64,000 nt of DNA, taken from the NCBI GenBank assembly GCA_026770705.1, contig JANJGN010000025.1, forward strand, positions 18,042,001 to 18,106,000. The letters are read 5' to 3'. Under the pieces are notes generated by a model. That model did no database searches. It saw nothing but the letters and a program-made list of their open reading frames with translations, and had not been told where the DNA came from. A program made the translations under genes and the position numbers. Shown here in pieces: positions 4,618 through 58,600 of this stretch; positions within the stretch are counted from its first letter, which is position 1, and every line of letters starts with the position of its first letter. The DNA is from Isurus oxyrinchus (Eukaryota).

Positions 4618-4800
4618 GTAAAGTTTAAATTCTTTCCTTAAACAAATCAAAGTGAAGCAAAGTTGCAGTAATGTGAAAAAAATTCCCTTTCTTTGGCTCC
4701 AAGAAAGTGGTGGAGCTTTTGCAAGCATTGTTGCAATGCACTGCCAGGAGTTTGCACAGTACAGTGTTGCCTATTGAACAGCCCAACTATTAATATCCAA

Positions 4801-4950
4801 CAATGAAAACAGAAAATGCTGGAAAATCTCAGCAGGTCTGACAGCATCTGTGGAGAGAGAAGCATAATTAACGTGTCAGGTCCGTATGACTCTGCTTCAG
4901 AGCTTCTGTTTTCTGCTTTTATTTCAGATTTCCAGCATCCACTGTATTTG
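4801..4950. mobile_element. Penelope-like element remnant (inverted arm plus 3' tail) with degenerate hammerhead-like motif
   Basis: Flanked by ctattaa(t/c)atccaa at 4787-4800 and 4951-4964; homologous to the other PLE tails in the window. Confidence 0.7.
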
Positions 4951-5066
4951 CTATTAACATCCAAGACAGGACTATAAAGCGATTAATTCCCTATATAATT
5001 TTGCAATGGTTTTTGTCATTGACAAGTAAGAGGAGGAGCAAGCAAGATGATTTCCTAAATTTAGAA

Positions 5067-5533
5067 CAAAAACAGAATTACCTGGAAAAACTCAGCAGGT
5101 CCGGCAGCCTTGGCAGAGAAGAAAAGAATTGACGTTTCGAGTCCTCATGACCCTTCGACAGAACTTGATTTCGAGTCCAAGAAAGAATTGAAATATAAGC
5201 TGGTTTAAGGTGTGTGTGTGGGGGTCGGAGAGATAGAGAGAGAGAGAGGTCATTGTCACTGACATCTTTTGATGATCTGCTTCTATCACTGCTTGTTTGT
5301 CCACACAACCACCTCTCTCTCTCTCTATCTCTCCGCCCCCCCACACACACACCTTAAACCAGCTTATATTTCAACTCTTTCTTGGACTCGAAATCAAGTT
5401 CTGTCGAAGGGTCATGAGGACTCGAAACGTCAACTCTTTTCTTCTCCGCCGATGCTGCCAGACCTGCTGAGTTTTTCCAGGTAATTCTGTTTTTGTTTTG
5501 GATTTCCAGCATCCGCAGTTTTCTTTGTTTTTA
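5067..5533 (+). mobile_element. Penelope-like element 3' end with a 5' inverted duplication (arms about 190 bp)
   Basis: Arms at about 5065-5250 and 5301-5498 are near-perfect reverse complements; 15-bp TSD ttcctaaatttagaa at 5052-5066 and 5534-5548. Confidence 0.85.
5397..5435 (+). ncRNA. Minimal type I hammerhead ribozyme-like motif (variant core CUGUCGA); antisense copy at 5127-5165
   Basis: agtt-CTGTCGA-a-gggtc(atgag)gactc-GAAA-c-GTC-aact: stem I agtt/aact, stem II gggtc/gactc, palindromic ACGT stem III, GUC triplet at 5429-5431. Confidence 0.7.
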
Positions 5534-6112
5534 TTCCTAAATTTAGAATCTGTTTCGAAACTGAATGGTCTTCGGAAAGAAAGTGATGACAGGTCTTCAG
5601 TATAGGTGCATGCAAAATCACCACAGTTCATTTGATCTCACATGCCTCAGATAAGCTTTGTGTTTAGTTTGACATTGTTTTCTTTGTACTGAACCACAAT
5701 GGACAGAAAGATCAGACAGCATGTGACAGATCACTTCTTGTCTGCATTTATATGGTCAGGCAAGTGGAAAAGCTACGGATGATTTTCAATCTGTTGTAAG
5801 TTGCCTGCACTCCCATAACTTTTGAATTATTAACCTCGATGCTAGAAAAGTTACACAGGGAATTTAGTACTGAAGAGCCCAGAGTTTATAAATTAAGTTC
5901 AGCGATGCATCGTAGAATACAGTGTGTGATAGCACATCAATGAACACTTACAAAAAGAATCTTCAAAATTGCAAACATAAATTTACAGCACATCCCTGAA
6001 GTACATTTGCGAAATTGCCGACTCTGCTGAAAGAAAAAAAATCCCTTTTGCCAATATTCATCTTTTAGATATAATGTTTCTTCTTTTTTCCTCACTGTCA
6101 ATGTGCTTTCAG

Positions 6113-6177
6113 GGAAATATTGAAGCAAGATTAGACATTGAATTTTTGAAGAGCTCTTCTCTTCCTCGAACAATGAT
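6113..6177 (+). other. Candidate isolated 65-nt exon (GNIEARLDIEFLKSSSLPRTM), gene unassigned
   Basis: Polypyrimidine tract and tttcag acceptor at 6112, gtaagt donor at 6178, one open frame; no homology recognised. Confidence 0.25.
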
Positions 6178-7879
6178 GTAAGTCTTTATTTATATGGCTT
6201 CCATGTATGATGAGATTCCTTGGGTGAATGCTCCTTTCCCTTAACTTTTATTCAGATGGCTAACTTTTTTTAAAACAGAATTTTCCAGATTAACTTATAA
6301 CTGCTCTTTTTTTTTAACCATTTTTCCTGTACCTTAAGCTTCATGTTGACTCTTGTACATTGTTATAAAAAGCTGTGAGTGAGAAAGATTATTCATAATG
6401 GAGATTAAATGCAGCAATTGTCCCTTGATTATTTCTTTGGGTCCCAGCTGCAGAATTAATACAATTTCCTAAATGATATATGCACAATATGTACCACAAT
6501 TCCCACCCCTTCCCAAGGGCTATTTGGTTTAGTGGCAATTGGCACCACAGAGTGATCAGTCTCTTGTTATTGTTGATTGAGTCTACAAGCAATCAGGAAT
6601 ATTAACCATGTCTGTACAAATTTACAGCTGTCCCTCTTCCCACTTGACAATATTTCACAAAGGAAGCTCATATCTCCTAAAACCTAACCTGAGCCAATCT
6701 CAAATTATGCACGGTTTTCCCAGTGGTAGATGCTCCGATGAGCTTGCTTGTCCACAGCTGTAGGGATGTCTGGAGTGTTTCACTCACAAAATACATCTCC
6801 ATCCTTTGATGGTGGAGAAGATTCTTACTGTTCCAGGATTATAGCACCATAGTAGAAAATCCCAGGCTTCAAATTTCTCCCTGAGTGGAGAACTGACATC
6901 CTAGGCTCCCCCGCGATTCCTGTTGTACATCCTGTCTAAAGGGCCATACATTGCAAAGGATTTTCCACTCAGGGCCCCTTCAACAGTAAGAAAGATGTCA
7001 GAGATATCGGACGAGTTTCAATACCAATGAAAGCATCTTGTTAAATGTGTTTGTAGATCTTGCCTTTGAAACCACTAACGTCCCAATTTAATGTAGAAAA
7101 CATCACAATCATCCGCCATAACTATCACTTTTACACAGGAGATTGGCACTTCTGCAAAATACCTGCAGTGAAATGCATGACAAATGCAAGCTTACAAATC
7201 CAATAGGATAACAAAATGAAATGATTCATCATTAGATAACTGGAATTGAGAGAAAGATGGAGAAACAAATTTAACCAGGGTCAGCAATTTCCTCAGGTCT
7301 GTTCCTGTCCCAACACTATGGGGAGGATCTTCCAGTCGGCAAGTGGGAGCGGGACCCACTCGCCAACACACAAAATGACGCGGGGTGACGTTGGGTGGAA
7401 CTCCCAACGTCTCCCCGCGTCATTTCCATTTTCAGGTTGGCGGATGCACAGTCGAATCAACTGTGCACCTGCCAACTTGTTCGACGGCCTATTGAGGCAT
7501 TTAAAAAGTCATTAACATCATTACTGGACCGGCCCGTCCAACCTTAGGGCAGGCCGAGAGCCCTGGCAAGCTTCAGTAAAACCATCAAACCTCATCCACA
7601 GGCGGGATGATGTTTCATGAGGGTTTTTAAATATTTAATAAAGGTTTCGGTAAAAGTGATGGATGTGTCCCAACTCATGTGACAGGGTCACATGAGTGGG
7701 GACATGTCAGGGAAATTTTGCTCTCATTTCTTTAACATTTTTGAATTTGGAGCTGATCTCCATGAGTCAGCACTTGGCCTCAGGGAGATCAATGTGCTCT
7801 TTCGCACACATGCACAGAAAAGTGCACACCCGGCTGAGGGAATCCCTCCCGCACAGTGCGCGCATAGCTAATCGCCGCA

Positions 7880-9588
7880 GCCTCATCAGATGACACAGCC
7901 ACTGAAAGATGGGCAGGGGAGCTGCTGCCATCATCCAGAGCCCCCTGTGAGGAGCCCACAGAGACGACAAGCAGCTTGTGTGGCAACGTGAAGTCATTCT
8001 GGACCCCCCTGCTCGCCATTGATGGATGGGCACCTGGCTGGGATACTGGGTGCCTCATCCATCTCCCACACGGACACTAACCACCTGAGGTCAGTTCATG
8101 CGCGAGGGCCTGCAGGTCCGAGTGCAGCCCCAGGAACCCCTGATGCTGTTCCTGGAGCTGCCTCTCCATGAGAGTCACCAGTCTTTCAATGGAGGAGGCA
8201 GTGTGCTTGACCATGAGGGTCAACACAGTGCTGCTGCTCCACATGGACTCCTCCATAACGGAGACCATGGCAAGTATAGCCTCATGGATCTCCGCCAGAT
8301 CCTCCCACACATCTCACTGGATATCCAGCATCTGCTCCATAATGGATGACTCCAGAGGCTCATCATCTACCTTTGACTGAGCATTGTCCTGGTCTCCAGC
8401 AGTCCTCCAGCTGCTGGCACCCTTGACACTCTCTGCCTCCGCCTGCACCTCAAGCACCCTCACCTCCATGCTCCAACATTCTAGCTAAAGAGCTAACGTC
8501 CACCGAGGTGCTGGTATCTGCGCTGGTGCCTGGTTCAGAGAGCGGGTGTGATGCAGGTGCACCTGGAGTCTGGCAGTCCTCTGATGTCAGGGGTGGCTCT
8601 TTGGGGTCCGGGATTGGGCGCATGGCAGCAAATCTAAAGGAAAACAACGACATGTCATTAGCTTAAGCCATCACTCTGTCACTGTGCATGTCATGCACCC
8701 TGGTGAGACCATGGAGATCTGCATCATGGTGCCATCGTCTTACAGTGGCGAATCCAGTTTTGAGGCTCCCATCAATGATGAGATGACACAAGAATGTTTT
8801 CACCATCCGATACTCTCAGCTCTGTGCACTGCACTCTTACCTATGTCTGACACCCCAGCATCTCCGCAGCCACTTGACAGAGGTGCATGGTGCCTCTCCA
8901 GCGCCAAGGCAAAGTGCTTGTATCTGGTTAGGATTAGGAGGTTAGCACTGGTCTGCAACCTTTAATGTTGTTAAGGGCTGTTTTCTCCTGAAAGGACAGA
9001 GGAGCATTGATGAGTCCACTCTCTACCTGCAGCACCATTGCAGCCTGGCTGACCCCAGCTGAGGAACACCTCACAGGACACATCTGAGTCATGGCCTTTG
9101 AGCCGCAAGGCACTCAGTCCAAGCTGCCAGGGCTCGCCCCCTTGGCCAGCTCCGGCATCATTGACAGCTGGCACTCAAACTCTAACACCCCTGAGCTCCA
9201 TGGGGGGATGGTCAGCCCTTAACACTTCAGTACACTGATCCATGCCAACATGGTACTCACCCTTCCTGAGTGCAGAAAGTCATTAAACCTCTTGTGGCAC
9301 TGGACCCTGATGTGCCGCAACACATCATGACTGCTGACCAACTCTACCGCCTCTTCCCAAGCTCTTTTTGTTAGGTGCAGTGGCCTCTTCCTTCCATCCC
9401 TGGGGACAAGAGTGTCCCTCCTGGCAGCCCCTACCTCCTGGAGGACTGCGAGGCACTCATGACAAAACCAGGGGCCGAGTGCCCACCCGACCTGCCCTCC
9501 CGCCTGGCATCTGTGCCCACCTGACCTGCCCTCCCACCTGGCATCTGTGCCCACCCGACCTGCCCTCCCGCCTGGCATCTGCGACCAT
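7880..9588 (-). pseudogene. Harbinger Myb/SANT-like (trihelix) DNA-binding gene; exons about 9588-9261, 8987-8841, 8633-7880
   Basis: KRAWEEAVELVSSHDVLRHIRVQCHKRFNDFL trihelix motif; gtgagt and gtaag donors and tttcag/ctttag acceptors at positions conserved with copy E. Confidence 0.8.
9479..9580. repeat. 34-bp tandem repeat x3 (gtgcccacccgacctgccctcccgcctggcatct)
   Basis: Three near-identical units are visible; only one corresponding unit is present in copy E (about 29700-29727). Confidence 0.9.
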
Positions 9589-10845
9589 GTTGGAATCCAT
9601 AATTTCTAATCTCCTGCTGACAACACCGAAGGTGTCCTGATCGCCGGCAGCCTTCCAGGGCCTGACTGTGCCGGTTTTAAACTGTCTGCCGGGTCGCCGT
9701 TGGACCCGACGGCCGACAGACCCCCACCCCTGCCCCCGACCCCCGTCCCCGCCCGATCGTTCCTGACCACTGGGGAGCGGCCGTTCACACTCGGTGGGCA
9801 TTAATTGGCCCAGCAATGTGAAATCACAGTCAGGGGCCGAGCGCAGGGGCTGGTCCATTTCCCGGCCAGTTACCAGGTCACCAACCGCACCCGCCCACCA
9901 AACTCCAAATTCTGGCCTATAAATTCCCTGGAAGTGCGGCCGAACAAGCCTAATCAGGATTGTCAGCACAATCCTGGCAAAGTTACAATGGTGGAGGGTG
10001 AGCAGTTCTGAAGAAATTTCCATTCCAAATATTTTAAACGTTTTCAGATGCAAGGCAAATAAAACATTGGATTCAATAATTATTTTCATTGATTTTTGCT
10101 TCCAGCAAAACAACATTGTTGCTTATAAAGCATTAATGAGGCCACACACGGAGTGCGATCTCTGTATAGTTACATTATTCCATCTCAGTTCAACAGAAAT
10201 CTTGAGGGGGTGTGCACGCTATAAAAGAATTCTGGTGCAAATGGTAAACTTAAAAAAAAATCAGAGGAATTGGATTTAATATGTGCAAGTCTTTTTCGTG
10301 CTACTAGTTAACTCTGCAGGGTCATCTCGGTTAAATTGGTGTTGTTCTCATCCCTAAGTGAGAAGCTGTCGACTCAACCTCTGCTCAGCATACAGCATGT
10401 TCTAATACCAGTGAGGGAGATGGACACAATAAAGGTGGAGGCAGGAAATTTGTGTCAATGGCCAAGAACTGGAGCTGTGCAATGCTCCAAAACCTGTCTG
10501 ATGGTTGGCAAACTGGAGGTGACAGCGTGAAAAGTGGTTCTGCCTTTAGGGTGCACATGGACAGCTTGTGGAGCTATTTTTGCAATGTCATTGCCAGGTA
10601 AGTCCACCTCTATCTGTAAATATGAATGGGAAGTGACCAGCCAGTAAACATAACCTACCTCTGGCGCAGCCTGATGGATCACATTGCTGCTATTTTCCTT
10701 CTTCTACAAGAGGCATAAGGAATTCCTATTAGGAAACCAATGGCCTGTATTGTTTACATATTAAAATGTTAAAATTCACCCAAATGTTTGATGTGAAGCC
10801 TCCTGCCTCATTAAGTCAGAAAAAAAAACAGAATAAAAGTTTCAT

Positions 10846-11020
10846 AGTTGACGTTTCGAGTCCTCATGACCCTTCGACAGAACTCAAGTTCTGTCGAAGG
10901 GTCATGAGGACTCGAAACGTCAACTCTTTTCTTCTCCGCCGATGCTGCCAGACCTGCTGAGTTTTTCCAGGTAATTCTGTTTTTGTTTTGGATTTCCAGC
11001 ATCCGCAGTTTTTTGTTTTT
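10846..11020 (+). mobile_element. Short Penelope-like insertion beginning with a perfect 39-bp inverted duplication of the hammerhead-like motif
   Basis: Arms at 10846-10884 and 10887-10925 with a 2-nt spacer; 13-bp TSD ataaaagtttcat at 10833-10845 and 11021-11033. Confidence 0.88.
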
Positions 11021-11149
11021 ATAAAAGTTTCATGAATCTCCAAAGGTGGGGCAGTTTAAATGACTTCCTATAATGGGATGCACGATATCTAGGTACCTGC
11101 TTTGCACATGTAGTTTGATGGCTAAGTGCTGCTCAACCATAAACACCAG

Positions 11150-11777
11150 GGCCAGGATTTTTCATTGTCGGGCGGGCTTGCTGGGAGCAGGCGGGGGAGA
11201 TCGGATTCGCGCCGCCATTTTACGTGGGCCAGCCAGTTAAGGCCCACTCAGTGTATTAGGCAAGCGGCAGCGCTGAGCACTACCTGTGCAGGTGTGGGGG
11301 TGGGGGGAAGGGGGGAGAGCTGGGCCTAGCGCACACTTCACGCATGCGCGTGAAAGAGCGCTTCAATCACCCTGAGGCACAGAGCAGCTTCCGAGAGATT
11401 GAAGAGCTTTTCAAAAAAATGAATAAAAGCAGTAAACATGTGACTGTGTCATGTGAGATGGGACATGTTGTTATTTTTCAGAAAACGTTTTTAATACAAT
11501 CACTACTAGCTTTAGGAAACCTCACCCAGTTTGTGGGTTGCCGCTTGGCCTTCTTGCCAATGCACCAAATGTAAGATTGGATGGGAAGTGTGAATTTGAA
11601 CTTAATTACTTTGATAAAGGCCTTATTAGGCCTTTTAAATATCAGTGGGTGCGCAGCTGACTCCAGCGCAGGCCCACCAAACGAAACATTGCGCGACAGA
11701 GCGATGATGTCATCGTGTGTCAGTGTGGCACCGGTGTGTCAGGCCCACCCCTGCACACCGACTAAAACATCCTGGCC
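11150..11777. mobile_element. Harbinger-type MITE
   Basis: TIRs ggccaggatttt and aaaacatcctggcc; flanks cag/caa; homologous to 38479-39168. Confidence 0.82.
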
Positions 11778-13477
11778 CAAGAAATTGCACGGATGTCTAA
11801 ATAAGGTAATTAGGGACTAAACAACCAGCACACTGATGGGTACTATTGGTGCCCATACAAATCCTGACCAGTAAGTTGGTCTGGTACCACAGATCTCTGC
11901 CCATTTTTTTCACTTTCATTAGTCATTAATAACCAATGAAAAAACTACTCTACTTGATACAATCTTCCCCACGTAATTGCATACTTTTTATCACTGAAGC
12001 ATTAATGCTCCACAGTAAGATAATTGGATCCAGGCTCCAGACAGCGCTGCCATGTGGTGGGCAGAATGTGCATCTCCGGCGGGATTCTCCGAACTGCCAT
12101 CTCTGGATATCAACTTTTGAAGCTGGATGAAGCAGCAGGAAAGAGATCGGTTACTGTGTCATTAGCAGTGCTGGCTCATCAGCACCTCCACAGCATATGT
12201 TAGGCGGCCATCAAACTGGAGTTTGATAATATCCCATTACACAGTAACGTGGTGACTTTGCATAATATTATGTAGTCTGACTGGGTGTAGGGTTGAGCAG
12301 TTTGGATCATTAATTAATCTGTTGAAAAACAAGCAACTTTTCACCTCACAGCTCTGATGTTGCAGGTGAGTGCTCCTTCGAGAATGATAGGTCAGGCTTG
12401 CAGATGTTGTGAGGCCAACATTCAATTTTCTGATACTAATACACTACCAAATTAAGAATAGGATTGAATGTGACTCATTGAAGCAAGTTTCAAGTGGGTT
12501 GATGAGGCTAGCAAGTCATTTGTTTACAGAATGTGTTTGTCATATTCTTTAAACAGTGTTTGTATTCCTGTTACATTTGCAGCTCTTAAGGAAATAAAAC
12601 TATTTTCTAATTTGAAATAGTTTTATAGCATTATTTATATTACAAAGTAGAAGCAAAATTATTTGGTTGTCTAAATGTATCTTTGAAGTACCATCCTTTA
12701 TGCAGCTGTAAAATGTTAAATTTTAAAAAAAAAATTTTCATATCTAGTGTCTACTATTTATCTTGAACTTATTCACATTCCTATTTAGCATACTGATTTG
12801 GCAAGTCAATCCATGTTGCCCATTCATTCTCCTTGATGTATCCCTTTCTGCTTCTAAAAATTCAATTACAGATGATCCGCTTTTGACCAATGGATCCTGT
12901 TATCATTAATAATTTCATGTCATTTGAGAGTTTGCTTTTGCCAGTTGCAACATTTGAATTATTTTCTTTTTAATATGCTCAATTGCCCTTTAGTTAGTTT
13001 TTGAAAAAAAATGCTGGGTGAGCTGCTGATTTAAGAGCACACCAGAATTCTGGATTATCGGAGAACAACATGATGATGTCACCTTAGCTATGCAGCATCA
13101 TCCCACTGGACTTTGCATATGTGCAGTATGGTCCCAATTTCTCAACATAAAATTCCTCACCCTAACTCTATTTCTCTCTCCAAAGATGCTGCCAGTTTTG
13201 CTGAGTATTTCCAATATTTTTTGCAGTTAATTTATCTAGCTCTTGCATATTCATTAGGTTGCTGCTGTCCAACTGGTCTCAGAGCAATGCAGAGATGACA
13301 CCAGTTCTCAGTCTACAACAGGTTTATTTACATACTTTAAAATATCACATAACTGACAGGATTTTCAACATACACATGGGACTGAATAATATGAGGATGT
13401 AATATTAATATAATTATTCATATTATTAAAAATATGGCTCACCCTCAAGAAGGAAAATTGGTATGGAGCTGACATGC

Positions 13478-14005
13478 TCCACACCAACCTGCCCCACGCC
13501 AACCTGCCGCACACCAAACTGCCCCACGCCAAACTGCCCCACGCCAAACTGCCCCATGCCAACCTGTCCCACGCCAAACTGCCCCATGCCAACCTGCCGC
13601 ACACCAAACTGCCCCACGCCAAACTGCCCCATGCCAACCTGCCCCACGCCAAACTGCCCCATGCCAACCTGCCCCACACCAAACTGCCCCACGCCAAACT
13701 GCCCCACGCCAACCTGCCCCACACCAACCTGCCCCACACCAACCTGCCCCATGCCAAACTGCCCCACGCCAACCTGCCCCACACCAACCTGCCCCACGCC
13801 AACCTGCCCCACACCAACCTGTCCCACGCCAACCTGCCCCACGCCAACCTGCTCCACACCAACCTGCCCCACACCAACCTGCCCCACGCCAAACTGCCCC
13901 ACGCCAACCTGCCCCACGCCAAACTGCCCCACGCCAACCTGCCCCACGCCAACCTGCCCCACGCCAACCTGCTCCACACCAACCTGCCCCACACCAACCT
14001 GCCCC
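13478..14005. repeat. 15-bp minisatellite, about 35 copies, consensus aa(c/a)ctgcccca(c/t)(g/a)cc
   Basis: Directly visible; it explains the five overlapping repetitive ORFs. Confidence 0.97.
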
Positions 14006-14911
14006 ATAACCGTGAAGTACTGCAGGGAGGCTAAATGAGGGCCAAGTGGGCTTCCACCCCTCACTGGGAACAGAGGGCTTAAAGCTGTTTGCAGGTAGGA
14101 AGGAAGGGGGGGTTTGATCTTTGGGAGGCCATTCCCTGATTGTCAAATGGCTTCCCACAAAAATTGATCCTCCCACTCCCTTTCCACCCTTTGAAGGATA
14201 TTTTTTATAAATCGGCTACCCGTTCCTACCAGACTGCCCACACAAACTGTTTTATGAAGTGGGCAGCATATTATCAGAGTCAATAGGCTTTTTAACAAGA
14301 CTAATTGTCCTTTGAATACTTATTTGAATATGGTGGCGGGCCTGCTGATTTTGGCACCTGCCCACCCCCAGTCTTTTGGCTGGGGGGTGGGAGGGGTGGG
14401 AGGGGGATAATGTGGTGGGTGCCCACCCCACTTTACCTGTCCCCCCCCCTCCCCCCAGCCAAAAACACACCCAGCGGGATATGTGAGATACAGCCCATGG
14501 TCTCAGCTCAGAACAAGTCTTTCGGGAATCTTCTCAGTTCTCCTAGCTCTCTAGCTCCATCCACAGGCTTAAGCAATCAAGTACAGTATACATGGATCAG
14601 AGAATTGATGAACATAATCAATTACAGATCAATTAAGCCATTGAGCACAACACAAGCCAGTATGAAAAAAATGTCCTAGTGAAACCTGGTTTATATTTTG
14701 CAGTATTGGTGTTGTATACTTACAAATGACTGTAATGTTCAACAGTACCTATTGCAACTGACCCTAATAATTGGCTTAATTACTCTTACAAAAAGTGGTG
14801 AAATTCCGAATCTTTAAAAAAAAATGTAGTTCTGTAGTTTGAATTGAACAGGCTATTCATATAATTGACTCCTTGGAGTTTACAAAATGTTAAGTGATTA
14901 TTGGGAGCTGT

Positions 14912-18145: not shown

Positions 18146-18282
18146 CTTCTTCAGGTTATATGGACTCAAAACGTTAACCCTGTTTCTCTCACCACAGATG
18201 CTGCCAGACCTTCTGAGCTTATCCAGCATTATCTGTTTTTGTTTCAGATTTCCAGCATCCTTGGTATTTTGCTTTTATTATA
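18146..18282 (+). mobile_element. Penelope-like 3' tail with partial hammerhead-like motif
   Basis: ggactcaaaacgttaac...gatgctgccagacc...cagatttccagcatc. Confidence 0.7.
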
Positions 18283-29746: not shown

Positions 29747-29780
29747 AGTTTCCTGTTGACAACACCGATGATGTCTTCTT

Positions 29781-29923
29781 TATAATAAATAAAAGCAAAA
29801 TGCTGCGGATGCTGGAAATCTGAAACGAAAACAGAAAATGCTGGGAAACCTCAGCCGGCCTGATAGCATCTGTGAAGAGAGATACAGAGTTAACGTCTCG
29901 TGTCAGTTTGACCCTTCTTCAGA
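29781..29923 (-). mobile_element. Short Penelope-like insertion inside Harbinger E, starting at the hammerhead core CTGAAGA
   Basis: 14-bp TSD gatgatgtcttctt at 29767-29780 and 29924-29937; reverse complement reads tCTGAAGAagggtcaaactgacacGAGAcGTTaact. Confidence 0.85.
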
Positions 29924-30720
29924 GATGATGTCTTCTTCGCTGGCAGCCTCCCAGCGGCTGCTTGGACCATTTTTAAACTGGCCACGGTGTTGTCATTGGA
30001 CCCGGCGGCCGACAGGCCCCATCCCCCACTCGACCCTTCCCGACAAGTGAGCAGCCGCAATTCACGCTTGGCAGGTTTTATTGGCCCACCGGAGTGAAAT
30101 CACAGTGAGGTGCGGATCACGGGCACTGTCCCGTTTACCGGCCGCTCCTGGGCCCACCGACCACGCCCAGCCACCCGGCAAACTCAACACTCTGCCCCAA
30201 GCCTCCTTGACCTTTTACACCCGTCTGAACAAATGTCCGCCTCCGCCCCAGCTCTTAAACATGAGAATTCTCAACTTGCACATGTTCACTGGGGATTTGC
30301 ATCATTTGCCATCAGGTTTTCAGGGATGCCCAGAAAGAAAATATTTTTTTCAGGCGCTTAATAGCAATTCTTTGAGTGTTTTATTTTTATTGAACCTCAC
30401 CTTCCTCCTGCTCTGAGCTGTTTGTTTCTTTACACGGCATCAGCAAGAGTCACGTGACAAATTGAAACGCACCCACAATTGCCGCTTCCTAAACATACTG
30501 GGGCTGAATTTTGCCCTTGATGGGCGGGCAGCCAATCACTGCCGCTGAAACGGGCTGCGTCGCTATTTTGTGGGGGTGGGCCAATTAAGGGCTGCCCAGC
30601 GGGTTTGCGACTCCCGTGTACAATGATTTGTTGTGCTCTGGAAGGGTGAGTACCATGTCAGCCTTGACCATTTGACCCATGAGGTAGACTTAGCCTTTGA
30701 GGCCTCCCCCGCCATGTCTT

Positions 30721-32335
30721 GAAAGCCAGTGTCCAGGGATCTGTGCTGGGTCCCCTATTATTTGTCATTTATATAAACGACATAGATGACTATGTGTAGG
30801 GTAGGATTAGTAAGTTTGCGGATGACACAAAGATTGGCCAGGTGGTTAACAGTGAGGTTTGAGTGTCTTGGGCTACAGGAAGATATAGACGAGATGGTCA
30901 AATGGGCAGATAAGTGGCAGATGGAATTTAAACCTGAAAAGTGTGAGGTGATACACTTTGGAAGGAGTAATTTGACAAGGAAGTATTCAATGAACAGCAT
31001 GACACTAGGAAGTTCTGAGGAACAAAGGGACATTGGCGTGTTTGCCCATAGATCTCTGAAGGCAGAGGGGCATGTTACTGGGGTGGTGAAAAAGGCATAC
31101 AGAACCATAAAACCATAGAAAAGTTACAGCACAGAAGGTGGCCATTCGGCCCATCTTGTCCATGCCAGCCCAAGGACACCCAGGTGCCCTTTCTAATCCC
31201 ACCTTCCTGCACTCGGCCCATAGCCCTGCAGCTTACAGCACTTAAGGTGCAGTTCCAGGTACTTTTTAAAAGAGTTTAAAGTTTCTGCCTCTACCACCAA
31301 CTTGGGCAGCAAATTCCAGACACCCACTACCCTCTGCATAAAAAAGTTCTTCCTCATGTCCCCCTACACCTTCTGCCACTTATCTTGAAGCTATGTCCCC
31401 TAGTTCTAGAATTCTCCATCAAGGGAAACAATTTTATCCTGTCCACTGCATCTATTCCCCTCATAATTTTGTACACCTCAATCAAGTCACCTCTCAGCCT
31501 TCTTTGTTCTAAGGAAAATAACCCGAACCTATCCAATCTCTCCTTGTAGCTACAGTTTTCTAACCCTGGCAACATTCTTGTAAATCTCCTCTGCACTCTC
31601 TCCAGAGCTATTACGTCCTTCCTGTAATGTAGTGACCAGAACTGCACACAATACTCCAGTTGTGGCCTCAACAGTGTTTTATACAATTCCAATATGGGAC
31701 ACTTGCCTTTATCAATTGAGGCATAGATTACAAAAGTAGGGAGGTCATGTTGGAGTTGTATAGAACCTTGGTGCGGCCACAGCTGGAGTAGTGTGTGCAG
31801 TTCTGGTCGCCACATTATAGGAAGGATGTGATTGCACTGGAGGGGGTGCAGAGGAGATTCACCAGGATGTTGCCTGGGATGAAACATTTAAGTTATGAAG
31901 AGAGGTTGGTTAGACTTGGGTTGTTTTCTCTGGAGCAGAGAAGACTGAGGGGTGCCTAATCGAGATGTACAAGATTATGAGGGGCATGGACAGGGTGGAT
32001 AGGGAGCAGCTGTTCCCCTTAGTTGAAGGGTCAGTCACGAGGGGACATAAGTTCAAGGTGAGGGGCAGGAGGTTTAGGGGGGATGTGAGTAAAAGCTTTT
32101 TTACCCAGAGGGTGGTGATGGTCTGGAATGCGCTGCCTGGGAGGGTGGTGGAGGCGAGTTGTCTCACAACCTTTAAAAAGTACCTGGATGAGCACTTGGC
32201 GCGTCATAACATTCAAGGCTATGGGCCAAGTGTGGGTAAATGGGATTAGGTAGGTAGGTCAGGTTTTTCTCACATGTTGGTGCGGACTCAATGGGCCGAA
32301 GGGCCTCTTCTGCACTGTGATTCTGTGATTCTGTG
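30721..32335 (+). mobile_element. 5'-truncated CR1 LINE in the Myb intron of element F
   Basis: GSVLGP, KFADDTK, WQMEFKPEKC, FFTQRVV; tail (ctgtgatt)n at about 32315-32335. Confidence 0.92.
31100..31691 (-). mobile_element. CR1 3' fragment inserted antisense into the preceding CR1
   Basis: LELYKTLLRPQLEYCVQFWS on the minus strand; tail agaaccataaaaccatagaa; the host rejoins as aaggcata|tgggacac. Confidence 0.9.
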
Positions 32336-48660: not shown

Positions 48661-48701
48661 ATGAGAAGGTTCGAGGTGTTAAGTTTGGGAACAAGTAAAT
48701 A

Positions 48702-49526
48702 TGTTAGATCTAGAATTTGCATTTTTAGATAAGTTGAGAGTTGTTTGAAATTCATAGGCGAGTCAGAAGTGTCAAGAAAAATGTTTGCATCTTGCAGGAG
48801 TCCATAGGTAAACAAGCAGTGGGGATATGATATTTTATTGACCTAAAAGCAAAGACAAGATGGAAACATGAAAGATCTTACATTTGGAAGGGTTTGGGTT
48901 TCAAAGGGCTGTGAGAACAATGCAATTAAGATGAAAGGGAAAACAAAAGTATATTAGAGTTACTGTTGTGTTACTGTAGAGTTAGCTAGAGATGTGTGTT
49001 TAGCCTGTTGAGCTGGATGGCTGTTAAGCTGGAGATGGTTGGAGACAGCTGGAGTTAAGTTGTTGAGAGGTCTTGGGCTGAAGCAAGCAGTTTTATTCTG
49101 AAGTGAATTCCACCACAAAGTGGAAGAGGGTAAAGGCCATATAATACACCTTTATTGAAGCTACAGCAGTTTGTCTTGTGTAATATTACTGGATTTCATA
49201 TTTAAATATCTATAAGGGAATGTTGCCTTGAAAGTGTTTACTTATGGGTTTGACCAAGAAGGGAGCTTTGGGGGAACGTTTTGTAAGACTAATCATAATT
49301 GTGTAACTGTAATCTTGTGTGCTTAAGTTTTCTTTTATTCCTTGTTAATGAAACTTTTTCCTTTAATTTTTAAATATCCAAAAGTATTTCTGGACCTCTT
49401 ACTGCTCAGATCAGTATGTCTTCTTCTCATTATCAGAATGCAAAAAAGAAAGGCTTTGGTGCATAAGCCAAGTTTCCCTCTGGGATTTGGTTTGTGCAGC
49501 AGTTAACACCGGCTGTGGTCATAACA
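48702..49526 (+). mobile_element. Possible solo LTR remnant
   Basis: tgttag...gtcataaca ends; no TSD found and the left boundary is uncertain. Confidence 0.35.
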
Positions 49527-51097
49527 CAAGGTAATAGTTCTTTTCTTTTAAGGGTTCAGCCACATCCAGTCTTCTTTGCAAATTTATCGCAAATTCACAC
49601 CAGAGTCAGTTCACTAGCCTGTTGTTGTTGAAGTGGCTTCCTTTATATACATTTACAGTTCAACCATTTTACCCCAAAATGGCAGAGGCCAAAGCTGAAA
49701 TTAAGACACTGCCATTCATATCAATCATATAGATTTTGTTGGCCGCTTGCACTGTGGCAATGGAGTGTCAATACAGGCAATTGACTATTAGCTTTCCATT
49801 ACCATGGACTGAATTATATTTCAAATTTGCACTTTGTCCCAATTTTGTGGCAGATTGCTAATTCAGGGGAACACTGCACACCTCTTTATTCATAACAGGT
49901 CAATTTTTATCATCTATGACAATCATTTTGTGTTTAGTGACACACAATGTCTTATCTTCTCTCTCCAGAGGTAACACTTTGGCAGTTATACCCATGGCAG
50001 GTGAAACATGACAGACAGGAGAACGCCTGGGGCTTCACTAATGCTTCAGAAGCTAGAGCTGCTGAAAACACCAATTCCAATATAGTTTAGTGAATTCAAT
50101 TTTAATGGTTTCTGTGGAAAGGATATTAATATGCTATAAAAACATGAAAATAATTCTATAAATTCAAAAGCTTTAAAGTTGCACAAAAATACATTTGTTT
50201 CTGCAGAAGGCAATTTGCAGAAAAATCCCTCATGTGCTTAAGTTATACCAAATCTCATTATTTCAGAGCAACATCTTGACAATGTACTTATTTTCTTAAT
50301 AATTATTTTCTCCTAGAAATCAAATTAAATTTGGGTATATACAAATGCTTGTAATTTCAAGTCTGGACAGCTGAAGTAACTAAAGTCATCCAATCTTTGC
50401 AATATAATGGCCTGGATGTCGTGGTAAGAATAATGTTGAGGCTACCATTGCTCACCATTAGTATTGGGTAAATCAGCAAGCAACAACTGACATCTGCATG
50501 TGCACAGTTCAGTGTGGAAATCGGGAATTTTCTGTCCAATTTTCTTAGCATCTCCATAAGCTCTCAATACCGAACGATTCAGCATTAAAATACGTGAAAA
50601 GTGTGAAGTTGCAGTACTTACCAACTAAACAAGCCAGGAAGGGTTAGGGCTGGTGCTTTCAAGTGTAAGTGAATTTTTATCTTCAAGATGGGGCACATTG
50701 CTACCAAATGTCCCCTCTGACCCTGGAAATTAACTTTTACAAGTCTGGAGTCTCATTCTTTCAGATTTTAATTATTATTACTAACTTTATTTTTTAAAAT
50801 TCCTGGCTTAGATTCTGTGTGGTTCCATGAGGATTCTTCAATCTTATTGGCTGATGAAACATGCTGTTGCTTGCTCCGCACACACACATACACCGCAGCT
50901 CCCCAGGAGAGGGCACTGCACTGAAATAGATTTTTAATTACTGTGAATTACTGCAAAAATGCCCACAGGATGTTTGTGGGCAGCTGTAAGCTTAATGAAC
51001 AATGAGCACTGTTCCTTTGCCACTGACCACAACATCTGGGCCACTATGTCATAAAAAGGGAATTTATATGCTAGCTCAAAGGTTGCAGCCACCACTG

Positions 51098-51240
51098 CTG
51101 ATGAAAGATCATCAACCTGAAGTATTAACTCTGTTTCACGCTCCATAAATGCTGCCAGACCAGCTGAGTCTTTGTATCATTTTCTGTTTTTGAATTCAGA
51201 TTTTCAGCATCCATAATATTTTGCTTCTGTATTATTATTG
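51098..51240 (+). mobile_element. Degraded Penelope-like tail starting at CTGATGA
   Basis: ctgatgaaagatcatcaacctgaagtattaactctg...atgctgccagacc...cagattttcagcatc. Confidence 0.68.
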
Positions 51241-51949
51241 CCGGCGAGGTACTTGGCATCTAATATCAGTCATCACTATTTATCATTGTTGTTTCATGAG
51301 TGACAAGCTTATTCAACTAAACAATTCTTGTGCACAGTGTTTTACTACTCTACAGCCTTTCATAACTATATAGTGTAACTAATTCAAAGTAAACAAAAAT
51401 GAAATGAAGCTTAGATTTGAGGAGGAAGCAGAATACATCAGCCACATTCAACTCACCTACCTTTCATGATCCAATATGCGTATATTACCCGTGCCAGCTT
51501 TGGGCAGGTGTCCTTGCTCCCACTCAGCTAAGTAGCTAAAAAATCACAACAGATTACAGGCTGCCAGCTCTGAGGCTGCCCAGTTTCTATTGGGTAGGTA
51601 GGGCTAAACTTGCCCTCATAATCTTAAAAACCTTCTGTCAAGAATTGTATCTCCCTTGCTTCAGGTACAAAGTCCCAAGAGGGCATTGACGACCATGGAC
51701 AGTAGTAGAAGGATCCGGTAAGTTAAGGCTTAACCTGGGACTGAGTACAATACTGTCCACCAGTGATGTAAAAAGGCACCTGATCTTGAGCTTAGGTCAA
51801 CAGTCTAGAGCCAGGTAGCAACATGTAGGGACATGCCATGGAGCCCTCTCCTCACCTGTGCTGTTTGCTGTAAATATGTACATAGTTCAGTAATGTTAAT
51901 AAAGATTTCTTGGCAACTTCTACAAGACTGCTAAGTGGTATCTAAGCAG

Positions 51950-52260
51950 TACACACTGCAGGTATCATCATGGACCTCTATGTTAATCCTGCTCTGGAAG
52001 TGTGGATAATCTTTGTTGGTGGTTCATTCATCCAATATGCGAGACTCTTTGGAAAGATCTTTCATTGTCTACTTCGATCTATTTTACCTTTGATTTTTCC
52101 CATCAGCATCAGACTTTCCAAATTATGATTTATTATGTATGCAAGTAATTCCAACTGTCTCTTCATGATCATAGTCAGCAGAGTTCTTTTGGTCTTGGAT
52201 TGTATAGTAATTATAATTTTTGTATCTGTATACATGTCCTTTAAAGGCAATATGAAGTCA
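51950..52260 (-). mobile_element. RTE/BovB-like LINE C-terminal remnant
   Basis: ORF 52062-52250: KRQL...LESLMLMGKIKGKIDRSRQ resembles the RTE motif LEK.LMLGKIEG.R.RGRQ. Confidence 0.65.
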
Positions 52261-52704
52261 TGGAAGGATTGTTAGGCTGATTAACAGTCTGACATAACTT
52301 GAATGCTCCTTCCACAGTCAATTGTTGTCATACCAACGATGGTTGTATTTTTCCTTCATAGTCCAAGGACATGACATCAACTAGAATTCATTAAGTTTCA
52401 GGCCCGAAGTGTTCAAAGATGACTGATAGGTCCAACTGGAGCACAAGAAGATCTATTGCATGTTGGGCACGTGCGTATTGTTGGTGCAGTAGAGACGTTT
52501 GCAGCTCTGGACTTGCAAAGCTCTCATTGCCTGTTGGCCAATGCGACTCTGTTCTGTTTATAGGAGGTGGTGACTCTAATGAAACTGTGCCACATAGTGC
52601 GATTATGCGTAAAGTTCTCCTATCTTTCTGGGTGCTCTTGAAGAGCTTCTTTCTGGCTTCAGATGTTGAATCCTATATGGTTGGAGGCTTTTAATGGATT
52701 TCCA

Positions 52705-53130
52705 TAATCCATAGAATTCTAGAATGATATAGCACAAGTGGACCCATTGTGCCTGTGCTGACTCTTTGAAAGAAATATCCAACTAGTCTCATTCCTCTGC
52801 CCTTTCCCTGTAGCCCTGCAACTTTTCCCCCTTTGACTCTTTATCCAGTTTCCTTTTAAAAGTTATTACTGATTCTGCTTGAACCATGCTTTCTGGCACT
52901 GCATTCCAGATCATAACTCAGTATAAAAATGGTTTCCTCACATTTCAGTTTTGATCCTTTTGTCAGTCATCTTAAATCAGTGCCCTCTGGTTATCGACCC
53001 TTCTCCCACCCAAAACAATTTCTCCTTCATTACCCTATCACGACCCTTCATGATTTTGAACACCTCCATCAAATCTCCACATAACCTCCTTTGGCCTGAG
53101 GAGAACATCAGTCACTTTGTTTCTGTAACT
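52705..53130 (-). mobile_element. Degraded CR1 3' fragment
   Basis: ttgaacacctccatcaaatctcc and cattccaga; tail catagaattctagaa. Confidence 0.72.
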
Positions 53131-54299
53131 GAAGTCTTTCGTTCCTCATTCCTTACAATTAAAACAAAAGGGGGATGTGTGGGGACTGGGTTGGCATCCT
53201 ATAGGCACAACTATTCTGGTCGATATCAACTGTGAGTTCAAGGGAGATCCAGTCATCACTTACCAGAAATGTCTGGAGTAGGATTTAACTCTTGGACCTT
53301 CTATCCTCAAGCCTAAATTCAGCTCATGCGCATTAAAGAATAATGGGGAAGAAATTAATTAGCAATGCATCTGATTTTTGGGGTGGAAATGGTTACAATT
53401 CTACCTAATGTAGCAGTGGAATGACCATGAGTGTGCCTCCATCTGCCTAATCTAGATCACTTATAGTGAATCCTGAGACGGTAAAGCCTTGTCATTGTAT
53501 TTCCATTTAGTGGTTACATCATATGCTCTCACGTGACCCCCTTTGATTTCAAGAACCAGTAAAATAAATATTTCACTATGCTATGGCTGGGGCTATGATC
53601 TACCCAATATATTTACTAACCAGTAAATGGATGTTGGCAGAAGCAATAGCTTTCCAATAGTTGTAGGTTTAATTTTCCTTACTCTAAAGTTAAAAAATAA
53701 CAATCATATCTGCTGTACTGAACTCTAATGTGAACTGCGCACATGGTTGAATAATAACCTTTATTTAAAAGCAATCTTGAGGCACTCAGTCCTATCTGTC
53801 TCACTGATAGCTCCATTTGTTGAAATCAGATTAGCCATTCGGGCAGGAAATAGTTAAAAAATTTAAATATGTACGCGAAGCTCAAATATCATTTCAACCA
53901 CAAAGATATGTTAAAGTAAAACTCCATTCAGATGCCTGTCATAATCATAATGGCACACTCCTGTGACAACTCCAGCAGGAGTGCAGGAGAAGGGCCAGAA
54001 TATGGCCAGGACACATCTGTTGGGAGTTCTCTTAGGCTTTGTAAAGAATAGGAACTCCACAGGCAGTACTGCCAAGAGCAAGAGGGTAGAATGGGAGTAG
54101 GGCCAATTGATGCCCCCATAACCCATCTCGAAGTTTCCTTTGTCCTGGCCTCATAAAGCTGCAGGCTAGTATACCCAGTGGGTTAATATGCATCAACCTT
54201 CAGATGGATATGTGGGCCCCACTTTGGAGTAAGGTTCTAGCCAAATAATCAGTCTGGCACTCTGAAGATCGCAAAAAATCTTTCTAATAGTCCCCTTCT

Positions 54300-54326
54300 C
54301 TCACACACACACACACACACACACAC
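54300..54326. repeat. (CA)n microsatellite
   Basis: Directly visible. Confidence 0.95.
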
Positions 54327-54919
54327 GTGAGTTACGAGTTAATGAGCTATGCAGCAGTTTAAACTAGTTCTTTTTAACTATTAGCTTTGCCAGAGGTCAA
54401 ATTAGCTCTTTTTTTATTCTCTTGTCTGAGCTGAGTGGCTTAATTATTTAATTGTTTTATTTCTGTTGTGAAGATCCCTGGACCTCTTCTGATTAGGAGC
54501 AGGGCCCAAAGTAGCCAGATAGTCTATCAGCTACTTTTTTTCAATTCCCTTGAGATTCAGTTTATTTGTTCTTTCCAAAATAGGGCTTGATTCAAGCCCC
54601 TTTATAAAATGATTTTCTTAGCATAGCAGTGACTTATTAAAAGATGATTCTGGAATAGGTACTCTCATTTGATGGTAGTACAAGAGCTGCTGTTATAAAC
54701 TATTAGACAAGAATCTCTCTGCTTCTCCCATACTTCAGTGCAGGTGACCCCACCGCCCCCAACCTTGTTAATTGCTTAATATGTTTCAGGCCTCATGTAA
54801 ATGTGACGATCATGTCTTTTCAGGTTTGGTGCAATCTCTTCTTATTACCTTGGGCTGAATTTAACCACCTCCTGTGTGGCAGGATGGAGGTTGAGGGGAT
54901 GGGGGGCAGGAGGGTAAGT

Positions 54920-56090
54920 AAAGACATCAAGGCAGCATTTGACAGAGTGTGGCATCAAGGAACCCTAGAAAAACTGAAGTCAGTGGGACTCAGGGGTAAA
55001 CTCTCCACTGGTTGGAGTCATGTTCAGCACAAAGCAAGATGATTGTGGTTGTTCGAGGTCAATCATCTCAGTCCTGGGACATCTTTGCTGGAGTTCCTCA
55101 GGGTCATTAGTGCCCTTGGCCCAACCATCTTCAGTTCTTTCATCAATGACCTTCCTTCCATCAAAGGTCAGATGTTGGGATGTTTGCTGATGCTTACACA
55201 ATGTTCAGCACCATTCGTGACTCCTCAGATACTGAAGCAGTCTGTGTCCATATGCAGCAAGGGCTGGTCAACATTCAGGCTTGGACTAATTAGTGGCAAG
55301 TAACATTTGTGCCACACAAGTGCCAGGCAATGACCATCTCCAACAAGAGTAAATCTACCCACCCTCCCTTAATGTTCAATGGCATTATAATTGCTGAATC
55401 CCTCACTATCGACAACCTGGGGGTTACCATTGTCCAAAAACTGAACTGGACCAGCCATATAAATATTGTGGCCCCAAGAGCAGGTCACAGGCTAGGAATT
55501 CTCTGGCAAGTAACTCACCTCCTAACTCCCGAAAACTTGTCGACCATCTACAAGGCACAATTAAGTCAAGAGTGTGATGGAATGCTCTCCATTTACCTTG
55601 GTGAGTACAGCTCCAACACTGCTCAAGAAGCTCGACACCATCCAGGACAAAGCAGCACACTTGACTGGCACCCTATCCACCACCTTCAACATTCATTCCC
55701 TCCACCATCAATGCACAATGACAGCAGCACGTACCATCTACAAGATGCACTGCAACAACTCACCAAGGCTCCTTTGACAGCACCTTCCAAACCAACGACC
55801 TCTACAACCTAGGACAGGGGCAGCAGATACATGGGAACACCATCACCGTCAATTTCTCCACCAAGCCACGCACCATCCTGACTTTGAAATATATCATTGT
55901 TCCTTCACTGTTACGGGATCAAAATCCTGGAACTCCCTCCCAAACGGCAATGTGATTGTACTTACACCACATGTACTGCAGCGGTTCAAGAAGGCAGCTC
56001 ACCACCACTTTCTCAAGGGCAGTTAAGGATGGAAAATAAATGCTGGCCCAGCCAGCGACACCCACATCCCGTGACTGAGCAATAAAAAAA
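54920..56090 (+). mobile_element. 5'-truncated CR1/L2-group LINE (RT pseudogene plus 3' end); likely partner of the SINE family
   Basis: DIKAAFDRVWH, LGPTIFSSFINDL, gtttgctgat (FAD), IYKAQ, LKKLDTIQDKAA, IYKMHC. Confidence 0.88.
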
Positions 56091-56959
56091 AGTAGCAGGG
56101 AGTCACGACAGAACAGCTCCCCAACGCCGTTCGTCACCGGAATGTTTCCCACTGGCGGACAGGAGGCCGACTACATGGGATTTGGCTGCCCGCTCCAAGG
56201 AGATGGGCAGCCTATTTGCAAAATTAAAGGTCCTATTAAAGACTATGTGGCCACCAGCATTTTGCCAGTTTGATAAAGGCGTCCTTTCCAGAGACTATCG
56301 GAGCCAGAGGCTCCATGGCTCAAGGAGGAGGGTCAAAAGGAATCACACGCGTCCCCAACAGGCAGCCCCCATCCCGTAGGGATCAGCCATCTGAATTTAA
56401 ATTTTTACTTACCTGTCCAAGGGCACCCTCTATTTCGAGGTCTCCTGTCTGCCTTGGCAGTTCCCACTTCTCCCAGTGGAATTGGTGAGGCTTCTGTGCT
56501 GCAGCCCCCTGATCGAGCCGACAGCATCAGGAACAAGTGCAGCGCTCGGGATGAGCTTTTTGGCCCAACATCAGATCCTAAAATCTGTGATAAACTAGAT
56601 TTAAATTATCGGACTGACATGTGCATCCTTTTTGCAGAATGGCAAAAGATGCCTAGTGTGTCATCTGCTTAAGTGCAGAAGATTATATTTTAGGTGTTTT
56701 TATTTTAGATAATTTTCTTGAGCGTCGCATCTGAAGTCAGTTCTGTCATGGTAGTGCCCACCCAGCACTTCAGCACTTTGTAGAAAGCCCAGAGATTGAA
56801 CAGGGGTTTTCTTCAAATGCAGTTTAGCCTATTGCTTATATTGTAACAGCTTATATGGCCACAAAATGAAGACTCCTCTGTCTCTCCACAGACATGCTCT
56901 CTCCTATAAGTAGCTCTAAGATGGATTACTTAATTATGACAAGACTTTAAAATAAAGAT

Positions 56960-57210
56960 TGACATTTCTATAGCACTGTCCACAAACACCAGATGTCCCA
57001 AAGCACTTTGCAGCCAATGAAGTGTGGTCATTGTTGCAATGTTGGGAAATGCAGCAGTAAAAACTTCCACAAAACAGCATTGTTATGATGATCAGATAAT
57101 CTGTTTTTGTGATGTTGATTGTGGGATAAATATCAGCCAGACACCACTGTCTTGCACCTCTTCAAAATAATACCACCTGAGAGGGCAGACAGGGCCTTGG
57201 TTTAACAGGC
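56960..57210 (-). mobile_element. Deu-domain SINE fragment
   Basis: Homologous to 21730-22030. Confidence 0.7.
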
Positions 57211-57604
57211 TGAAAATGATCAAAGATCTGGATACCTCCCTAAAAGTCAAAAGAGCTGCTTATTAAACATATATTCAAACAAAAAAACATAAGAATCTTG
57301 AGACAGGCCTTTTAGTGGTAAGTCAAGGATGTTTCAAAACTTCCATGGATGTACACCACCCCTATTCCAAATCCTGAAATTGCGTGTAGTTGCATTTTGT
57401 GGGTGGGTGGCCTTACCACCCCTGCTAGGTGGGGGAGAGATCTTGCACTATTGCCTCGCCACTGCATAAGTGTAAACCAAAGATTTTTTTAACATTTACA
57501 ATTGAATTTTGCGATTCTTTTCTTCAAAAAATTTCTCTGCAGCAGGGAGCTGACCTTTAACATTTAAAGTTCACCTCCAAGAGCACTTAGCCATGCTGGA
57601 TGCA

Positions 57605-58600
57605 TGCTTTTTTTAAATTCATCTGCAGGATGTCTGAATTGCTGGCTAGGCCAGCATTTATCACCTGGCCCCTAATTGCCCCTTGAGAAGGTGGTGGTGA
57701 GCTGCCTTCTTGAACCGCTGTAGTCCCTGTGGTGTAGGTACACCCAGATGCTGTTAGGGAGGGAGTTCCAGGATGTTGACCCAGCGACAGTGAAGGAACA
57801 GCGATATATTTCCAAGTCGGAATGGTGAGTGGCTTGGAGAGGAACTTCCAGGTGGTGGTGTTCCCATTTGCCTGATGCCCTTGTTCTTCTAGATGGCAGC
57901 AGCCATGGGTTTGGAAGGTGCTGTCTAAAGAGCCTTGGTGAACTCCTGCAGTGCATCATGTAGATGGTACACACTGCTGCTACTGTGCATTGATGGTGGA
58001 GGGAGTGAATGCTTGTGAAAGAGATGCCAATCAAGCGGAGTGCTTTGTCGTGGATGGTGTCAAACTTCTTAAGTGTTGTGGGAGCTGCACTCATCCAGGA
58101 AAGTGGGCAGTTTTCCATCACACCTCTGAATTGTGCCTTGTAGTTGGTGGACATGCTTTGGGGAGTCGGGAGGTGAGTTACACCTGCGGGATCTCTAGCA
58201 TCTGACCTGGTCTTGTAGCCACAGTATTCATATGGCTAACTTGCTTGTCCTGCTTTCTACCCTTAATTAGCACATTCCTCAGATAATGTTACCACCTTCA
58301 ACTCTTTGTCCTTTTGTCTGTGACATCTTTTGGTTATCTCCACCTATCACTGGCCCTCTATCCAGCTCTACCCGGCCCCCCCCCCACCCCCCCTTAAACC
58401 AGCTTATATTTCACCTCTTTTCTATTTTTACTTAGTTCTGTTGAAGGGTCATTTGGACTCGAAACGTTAACTGTGTTCCTCTCCGCAGATGCTGCCAGAC
58501 CTGCTGAGTTTTTCCAGGTATTTTTCTTTTTATTCGTATGGCTAGTCCAGTTCAGATTCTGTTCAATGGTAACATCAGGATGTTGATAGGGAGTCACCAC
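57605..58600 (-). mobile_element. LINE 3' part (same family as 54920-56090) interrupted by a Penelope-like insert
   Basis: ORF 57672-58154: YKAQFRGVME..PLSWMSAAPTTLKKFDTI. Confidence 0.88.
58239..58530 (+). mobile_element. Penelope-like 3' end with hammerhead-like motif at 58434-58472 (core CUGUUGA)
   Basis: TSD tattc(a/g)tatggcta at 58225-58238 and 58531-58544; agtt-CTGTTGA-agggtcatttggactc-GAAA-c-GTT-aact. Confidence 0.85.

Follow-up and report, generated by a model that had tools for sequence, protein, structure and literature searches.

The seven insertions sharing one tail in the window (the whole 64-kb stretch of DNA analysed) derive from an autonomous, EN-bearing Penelope-like element (PLE) by 5' truncation or folding back. 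About a third of its cut-off copies begin at the same few bases before a hammerhead motif, likely as a result of the template RNA starting at that point. Although PLE RT starts near the 5' end of its RNA, complete elements flanked by two matching pLTRs are produced; a sharp boundary, countable in tens of thousands of young copies and seen on the first pass but not on the second, allows an RNA end, an RT boundary and a circular template to be tested directly against one another.

Parent element and its copies in the window

An intact 3.33 kb copy found elsewhere in the genome (L135) contained RT, a CX4CxxC linker and GIY-YIG, and bore out the PLE origin that had been proposed for the tail from sequence alone. 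Its 926-codon open frame (L135:2732-5509) is flanked by two pLTRs and matched RVT_1 (E 3e-6) and GIY-YIG (E 2e-4) of Pfam, both slightly below the gathering score. The single ORF with RT and C-terminal GIY-YIG, as well as the partial-tandem pLTRs, inverted arms, optional tail and TSDs, places it among EN+ PLEs, and 46 full-length copies were present within L273-L332. The C-x4-C-x2-C stretch in its translation agrees with the CX2-5CxxC linker before GIY-YIG that defines the Neptune/Nematis type in the available part of PMC8557442. The same portion of that paper describes RT, linker and C-terminal GIY-YIG in a single ORF, pLTRs from partial tandems, 5' truncation, an inverted 5' arm, an optional tail of 30-40 nt and a hammerhead in the pLTR for these elements, all as found here.

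Positions are numbered from +1, the first T after AG in AG|TTCTG (window 5399, 10889 and 58436); hammerhead stem I begins with A(-2). The seven insertions and five TSDs reported by the sequence-only reading were all recovered. The young fold-back stub at 10846..11020 (plus strand; 13-nt TSD, 10833..10845 and 11021-11033) has an inverted arm from +37 and a plus arm to the long tail; its fold-back junction lies between -2 and -9 (around 10880-10888) with 5-nt microhomology. An older-family fold-back stub lies at 4801..4950 (minus; 14-nt TSD, 4787..4800 and 4951-4964, 1 mismatch), with a minus arm to 4905 that ends at -3 and the long tail on a short plus arm (~4906-4950). Two further older-family stubs, at 29781..29923 (minus; simple, +2 to long tail, canonical CUGAAGA core; 14-nt TSD, 29767..29780 and 29924-29937) and 51098..51237 (plus, from ~+3 by eye), also have their 5' edge at the motif, as had been claimed, whereas the older-family stub of the 18146 insertion (18153..18279, plus) starts at ~+12; TSDs were searched for at 18146 and 51098 and not found. 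Two insertions lie off the hotspot. The young inverted insertion at 5067..5533 (plus; 15-nt TSD, 5052..5066 and 5534-5548) combines a minus arm (5067-5248, short tail) ending at -87 with a plus arm (5251-5533, long tail) from -187. The intermediate-family copy at 58239..58530 (plus; 14-nt TSD with 1 mismatch, 58225..58238 and 58531-58544) runs from ~-197 and retains box, spacer, hammerhead (+1 = 58436) and short tail. An eighth, decayed copy missed earlier was detected at 13162..13229 (plus), starting near +34, and a TSD search for it found none.

The predicted minimal type I hammerhead at 5397..5435 (plus) consists of stem I (5397-5400/5432-5435), the core CUGUCGA and stem II, with the cut predicted after 5431; the commonest 5' boundary, A(-2), corresponds to window position 5397. 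The search with Rfam hammerhead models gave no match in the window, so the call relies on the motif descriptor together with the pairing of stem II. A PDB search gave no match. Among 27 hand-picked copies, stem II was 88.9% paired with 16 two-sided cells, all from one family split, and stem I was 73.6% paired with one two-sided cell; pairing in stem II is maintained across that split, so the stems do not speak against the first reading. Stems I and II with a palindromic minimal stem III correspond to the minimal type I hammerhead of PLEs. The canonical core CUGANGA is kept in older families, and in the young family core position 6 is U, with A there in 14 of 374 descriptor matches (a young-enriched sample).

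A hotspot of 5' ends at stem I

Hotspot counts cover contig C1, from which the first 100 arms anchored in the tail were used, all samples being from one contig; the satellite-amplified cluster L002-L006 and the rDNA loci L141-L152 were left out. Thirty of the 100 arms ended in -10..+10, with 2.7 expected from the flanking rate (Poisson p 3e-21, arms treated as independent), and per insertion the count was 26/80. An even spread of 5' ends, which would have spoken against the clustering proposed from the window, is therefore not what is seen. The excluded cluster L002-L006, 18-32 kb to the right of the window, is satellite-amplified and not a PLE array.

Genome-wide, breaks were counted by pattern, as exact 31-34-mers whose immediately preceding base departs from the consensus. 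Among 58,417 cores there were 2,274 matches at -3, 8,912 at -2, 2,142 at -1 and 1,999 at +1, so that the modal boundary is the first base of stem I; off the peak there were 282 at -12, ten bases upstream of the mode, and 965 at +34, the predicted self-cleavage site. Substitutions or subfamily variants rather than breaks made up 1/30, 7/30, 2/30 and 5/30 of the loci inspected at -3, -2, -1 and +1, respectively, and 6/12 and 5/12 at -12 and +34. The same start was seen by eye in 31 of 55 copies of older families.

These counts confirm the earlier observation that the boundary lies 5' of the motif and away from the GUH cleavage site, and self-cleavage as the cause of the main peak is refuted. The 965 matches at +34, a count covering +34 alone, include true breaks (7/12 inspected) and may amount to a small excess there, but the predicted cut is 35 nt downstream of the mode, none of the 37 sampled ends 3' of +10 fell in +31..+38, and the young family carries U at core position 6; that the hammerhead sets the 5' ends by cutting has next to no probability.

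Tens of thousands of stubs, 100-140 nt long and bearing TSDs of their own, are present, as would be expected if short master copies drove a non-autonomous, ribozyme-headed SINE-like family. This proposal of the sequence-only reading is largely refuted and was judged very improbable. The 188 stub arms and 225 longer arms examined have the same alleles over +1..+64 and no diagnostic ones, 3' ends run 2-9 nt into the ORF side alike in stubs (28/66) and long copies (33/82), stubs arise in parallel in older families, and they lack the upstream box; neither an own lineage nor own masters were found. Animal non-LTR retrozymes, in the accessible part of their description (bioRxiv 10.64898/2026.07.22.740005), are likewise short and non-coding, with a type I hammerhead, and derive from PLE pLTRs. 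They form tandem arrays, whereas the insertions here are dispersed, single or head-to-head, with TSDs and without a lineage of their own, and tandem units each with a hammerhead occurred only as sporadic short tandems such as L179/180. The very abundant 100-140 nt repeats are accordingly best annotated as PLE by-products rather than as SINEs or retrozymes.

Loss of the boundary on the second pass

On the second pass, when RT meets the sequence again in full-length elements, 2 of 33 5' ends stopped in -10..+10, whereas first-pass arms did so in 30 of 88 cases (Fisher p 0.0012; L303 and L246, of other subfamilies, left out), and copies with unverified 3' ends gave a further 0/17. Background truncation per nt was equal between passes (0.23 vs 0.21% inside, 0.19 vs 0.17% upstream). 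Variable 5' truncation is described for EN+ PLEs in the available text of PMC8557442; a single dominant stem-I boundary that is lost on the second pass is not among the features given there.

The partner arms at 69 selected junctions, a set in which some insertions are represented by both of their sides, ended in -10..+10 in 60 cases, further 3' in eight and upstream in one, and 67 of the 69 paired a long tail with a short one. Both tail start sites, 36 nt apart, yield the same boundary, which therefore does not reflect a distance limit. Arm ends are paired at distant positions as well (Spearman 0.77 for 20 pairs), so pairing alone is no proof of an RNA end. In seven insertions (L243, L245, L255, L261, L278, L298, L315) there are two stops near the site, separated by 134-957 nt from the start of the ORF; in L243 every copy shares a private variant, and in L245 both stops fall at -17/-18. 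Several of these junctions show microhomology.

The stop might instead belong to the enzyme: an RT anchored to the RNA, e.g. at the conserved box 25-35 nt upstream, would stop at -2 only in its first stretch, as at the template boundary of telomerase. A single template class would then suffice, and the absence of a second-pass stop, the fixed box-to-boundary spacing and the short reiterations seen at junctions would all be explained. We consider this unlikely, since both tail start sites share one boundary, double-stop insertions stop again after the jump, and the local fold is unremarkable, with no extra stability over shuffles (z 0 to 1.1). As to the stall or template switch at the ribozyme suggested earlier, template switches are seen at the site, though they look like a consequence of RT arriving at a template end. 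A stall by the fold gains little from these data, as the motif is already melted by RT at -2 and second passes mostly proceed without a stop.

Candidate transcription start and origin of the short copies

The TATA-like box TATATTT at 5365..5371 (plus) has its first T 32 nt before A(-2), and this spacing was 28-32 nt in 171 of 173 copies. The box is conserved and the AG invariant, while the spacer is variable, with one purine-rich type and pyrimidine-rich spacers in older families. A 28-32 nt spacer with an invariant AG is compatible with the spacing rule for TATA box and initiator. The sequence thus points to a likely transcription start at A(-2)/(-3), ~30 nt after the box, with the box as putative promoter, although TATATTT is a weak TATA match and CTTAT is also compatible with a branch point. 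Junctions at -2 gave no sign of an extra G from a cap; a cap-derived G at -3 is indistinguishable from a templated base of the other arm. RNA contigs from 7 runs, a type of data that does not reveal starts, showed none among the rows listed. T runs act as Pol III terminators, and a Pol III origin was rejected because such runs, at +38 and ~+71, lie before the tail.

A 3' splice site, with splicing-related processing or bound factors setting the boundary, would fit the invariant AG before stem I and the pyrimidine-rich spacers of older families, and the Penelope intron of D. virilis ends at helix I in the portion of PMC4209133 available. We regard it as improbable: the mode keeps the AG and -2 is about four times +1, the spacer is purine-rich in one subfamily, none of 120 junction loci revealed a first exon in common, and no GT-AG joint into +1 was among those listed from RNA contigs of 7 runs. 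The only long extra sequence traced, in L037, is captured antisense rRNA 5' spacer, so that host-exon splicing was dismissed there as well. In D. virilis, the accessible parts of PMC2377424 and PMC4209133 place the start in the upstream pLTR, with a 75-nt intron that follows 46 nt downstream and has its 3' end at the 5' edge of helix I; that known start is therefore not at the hammerhead and lies ~120 nt upstream of it, whereas copies here begin at stem I and no intron was found.

Given the observed parent element, hotspot, absence of a peak at the cleavage site, loss on the second pass and paired arm ends, the shortest class probably arises by run-off, RT having been primed on the tail close to the 5' end of a linear RNA. 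Further signs of a template end are the tandem recopying of -2..+47 in L179/180, the short reiterations and the rRNA spacer captured in L037. The RNA would begin at A(-2)/(-3), with transcription likely starting at the first base of stem I; RT would prime, by analogy with the anole element in vitro, on the tail that is followed by the ORF and, after run-off had left a short stub, the product may be joined by jumps or fold-back. Two thirds of arms and nearly all full-length copies extend upstream past the supposed start, and a second template class without an end at the site must therefore be assumed for long copies, which could be tandem read-through, an RNA circle or homologous transfer. For PAc, a Poseidon element of green anole, the available part of PMC11167929 reports internal initiation in vitro at two RT start sites bracketing the tail, extension of both target strands, a need for ORF-side RNA, dispensable ribozyme cleavage and shorter products from 5'-shortened templates; PAc belongs to the Poseidon clade, and neither a natural RNA 5' end nor a genomic 5' hotspot is among the results in that part.

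A more specific version, which we hold only tentatively, assigns the stubs to run-off on a linear primary transcript starting at hammerhead stem I and all long copies to a ribozyme-closed RNA circle, with both pLTRs copied from one segment. It is consistent with the second-pass result, the matching alleles of 5' and 3' pLTRs (25/26, one polymorphic site) and the rarity of two-ORF tandems (1/46); if true, the stubs would preserve in the genome both the start site and the ratio of linear to circular templates.

Regarding junction details, CC/GG bases, considered as terminal C-tailing, were left out of the evidence because most are readable as copies of +8..+15, and recurrent landing at ORF+957 was explained by microhomology.

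Copies in the window and the parent element

The seven short insertions of a Penelope-like element (PLE) proposed by the sequence-only reading (4801, 5067, 10846, 18146, 29781, 51098, and 58239) were all real. The claimed target site duplications (TSDs) of 13-15 nt were present at five of the seven, and the four insertions said to start or fold back a few bases from the 5' edge of the hammerhead motif do so. The copies at 5067 and 58239 extend further upstream than this edge, and an eighth, decayed copy was found at 13162. Positions were numbered from the first T after the AG opening hammerhead stem I (+1; window 5399, 10889, and 58436); the first base of stem I is A(-2), and the predicted ribozyme cut follows +33. 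PLE copies had two 3' ends, near +100 and +136. The window also contains a 15-bp minisatellite (13367-14070) and, separately, a long fold-back of another repeat (31360-32081).

The host genome (4.98 Gb, with the window at C25:18042001-18106000) contained 106,063 exact matches to a 33-nt tail pattern. The window repeat is presumably similar to PLEs of cartilaginous fish. A search for a full PLE carrying the tail was successful: two tail matches 3.33 kb apart flank a 926-codon open frame encoding a reverse transcriptase (RT), a C-x4-C-x2-C linker, and GIY-YIG. By its predicted protein, the parent is an EN+ PLE of the Neptune/Nematis type as defined in PMC8557442. Inverted arms, a one-sided tail, and TSDs are all documented in PLEs. 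In the parent copy, AATAAA (L135:5560) precedes the 3' hammerhead by about 350 nt, so an mRNA polyadenylated at this predicted signal would be without the 3' tail.

5'-end hotspot

Among the first 100 tail-anchored arms on contig C1, 30 ended within -10..+10, where 2.7 were expected from the flanking rate, and the remainder were scattered across 3.3 kb; counted per insertion, the share was 26/80. Genome-wide, with 58,417 cores as reference, candidate ends numbered 2,274 at -3, 8,912 at -2, 2,142 at -1, 1,999 at +1, 282 at -12, and 965 at +34. Substitutions or subfamily variants accounted for 1/30, 7/30, 2/30, 5/30, 6/12, and 5/12 of the loci read at these positions, respectively, and corrected true breaks were ~6,800 at -2, ~140 at -12, and ~560 at +34 (denominators differ somewhat). 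Older families with the canonical core had the same boundary in 31 of 55 bystander copies, as classed by eye. Among the papers listed by literature searches, none described such a boundary in its title or abstract opening; the element belongs to a known class, and its well-measured 5' boundary is apparently undescribed.

A 10-bp satellite array (63859-64000, continuing in L001-L004 at C25 ~18.106-18.14 Mb) contains roughly a dozen short hammerhead-tail copies (stubs), the majority beginning at -2, which were amplified along with the satellite.

Cleavage, stalling, and a SINE-like family

The boundary was correctly placed 5' of the motif, and hammerhead self-cleavage was rejected as its source: the peak lies 35 nt upstream of the cut, and of 37 ends sampled downstream of +10, none fell in +31..+38. 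Core position 6, a further argument against cleavage, is U instead of A in the young, most prolific family (window 5401-5407; young copies genome-wide) and C in some subfamilies, although stem II pairing was kept through the family split. A palindromic MITE-like repeat was inserted in older PLE hammerheads at about +31, adjoining the cleavage site (clear in L051 and L101, unclear in L133, L016, and L057). In two of the five loci checked, the hammerhead 5' half was recovered beyond it, a hint of preferential targeting.

A strong RT stall, also suggested previously, fitted poorly as a plain roadblock. Fold stability of the hotspot region was no better than that of shuffles, and RT recrossing the same sequence in full-length elements stopped in 2/33 second passes versus 30/88 first passes (p 0.0012). 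Background truncation rates on either side of the site were equal between passes, so greater processivity of long cDNAs does not explain the loss of the stop.

The proposed non-autonomous SINE-like family was rejected, since 188 stub arms and 225 longer arms carried identical alleles and 3' ends extended into ORF-side sequence equally often (28/66 stubs and 33/82 long copies, a sample enriched by the pattern searches used). This makes it probable that stubs and long copies alike were primed on a tail with the ORF start behind it. According to PMC11167929, the anole protein requires this arrangement in vitro.

Features suggesting a template end

At 60 of 69 selected junctions, some of them counted from both sides, the partner arm also ended at the hotspot, and at 1/69 it ended upstream. 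Seven insertions halt near the site, restart within the ORF start, and halt again; in others, -2..+47 is copied again in tandem or rRNA spacer sequence has been picked up in antisense orientation. In L037 (about 1550-1620; C1:1318605 region), the TSD and the hammerhead of a stub are separated by 71 nt that match the rRNA 5' external spacer in antisense. Upstream of the site, a conserved TATA-like box is followed by a freely varying spacer and an invariant AG, with a box-to-AG distance of 28-32 nt in 171 of 173 copies (25-37 permitted in the search). Jumps landed recurrently on the ORF side, 134-144 nt beyond the tail (L255, L261, L264, L291, and L304), possibly close to the protein-binding region.

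Proposed mechanism

The template would be a linear RNA, its 5' end most likely at A(-2)/(-3). Starting at +100 and +136, RT would prime on both target strands before running off, the run-off ends being joined to the target, to one another, or to another RNA. Three points count against this RNA-start model: no RNA start was seen in RNA contigs, a data type that cannot show starts; no cap signature was found at -2 junctions in the loci read; and, according to PMC2377424 and PMC4209133, Penelope of D. virilis differs in having its start ~120 nt upstream and an intron whose end meets helix I. The main rival, an RT boundary acting on the first pass, appears unlikely to us.

Under the RNA-start model, long copies would require a second template without an end at -2. 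In 25 of 26 elements, the two tandem-derived terminal repeats (pLTRs) carried the same allele at a common polymorphic site, and 1/46 was a two-ORF tandem, which fits a circle, intramolecular transfer, or homogeneous tandem masters alike. In L274 and L306, an internally deleted unit forms a three-fold repeat with an identical junction, a pattern expected from rolling-circle copying or from duplication at a later time.
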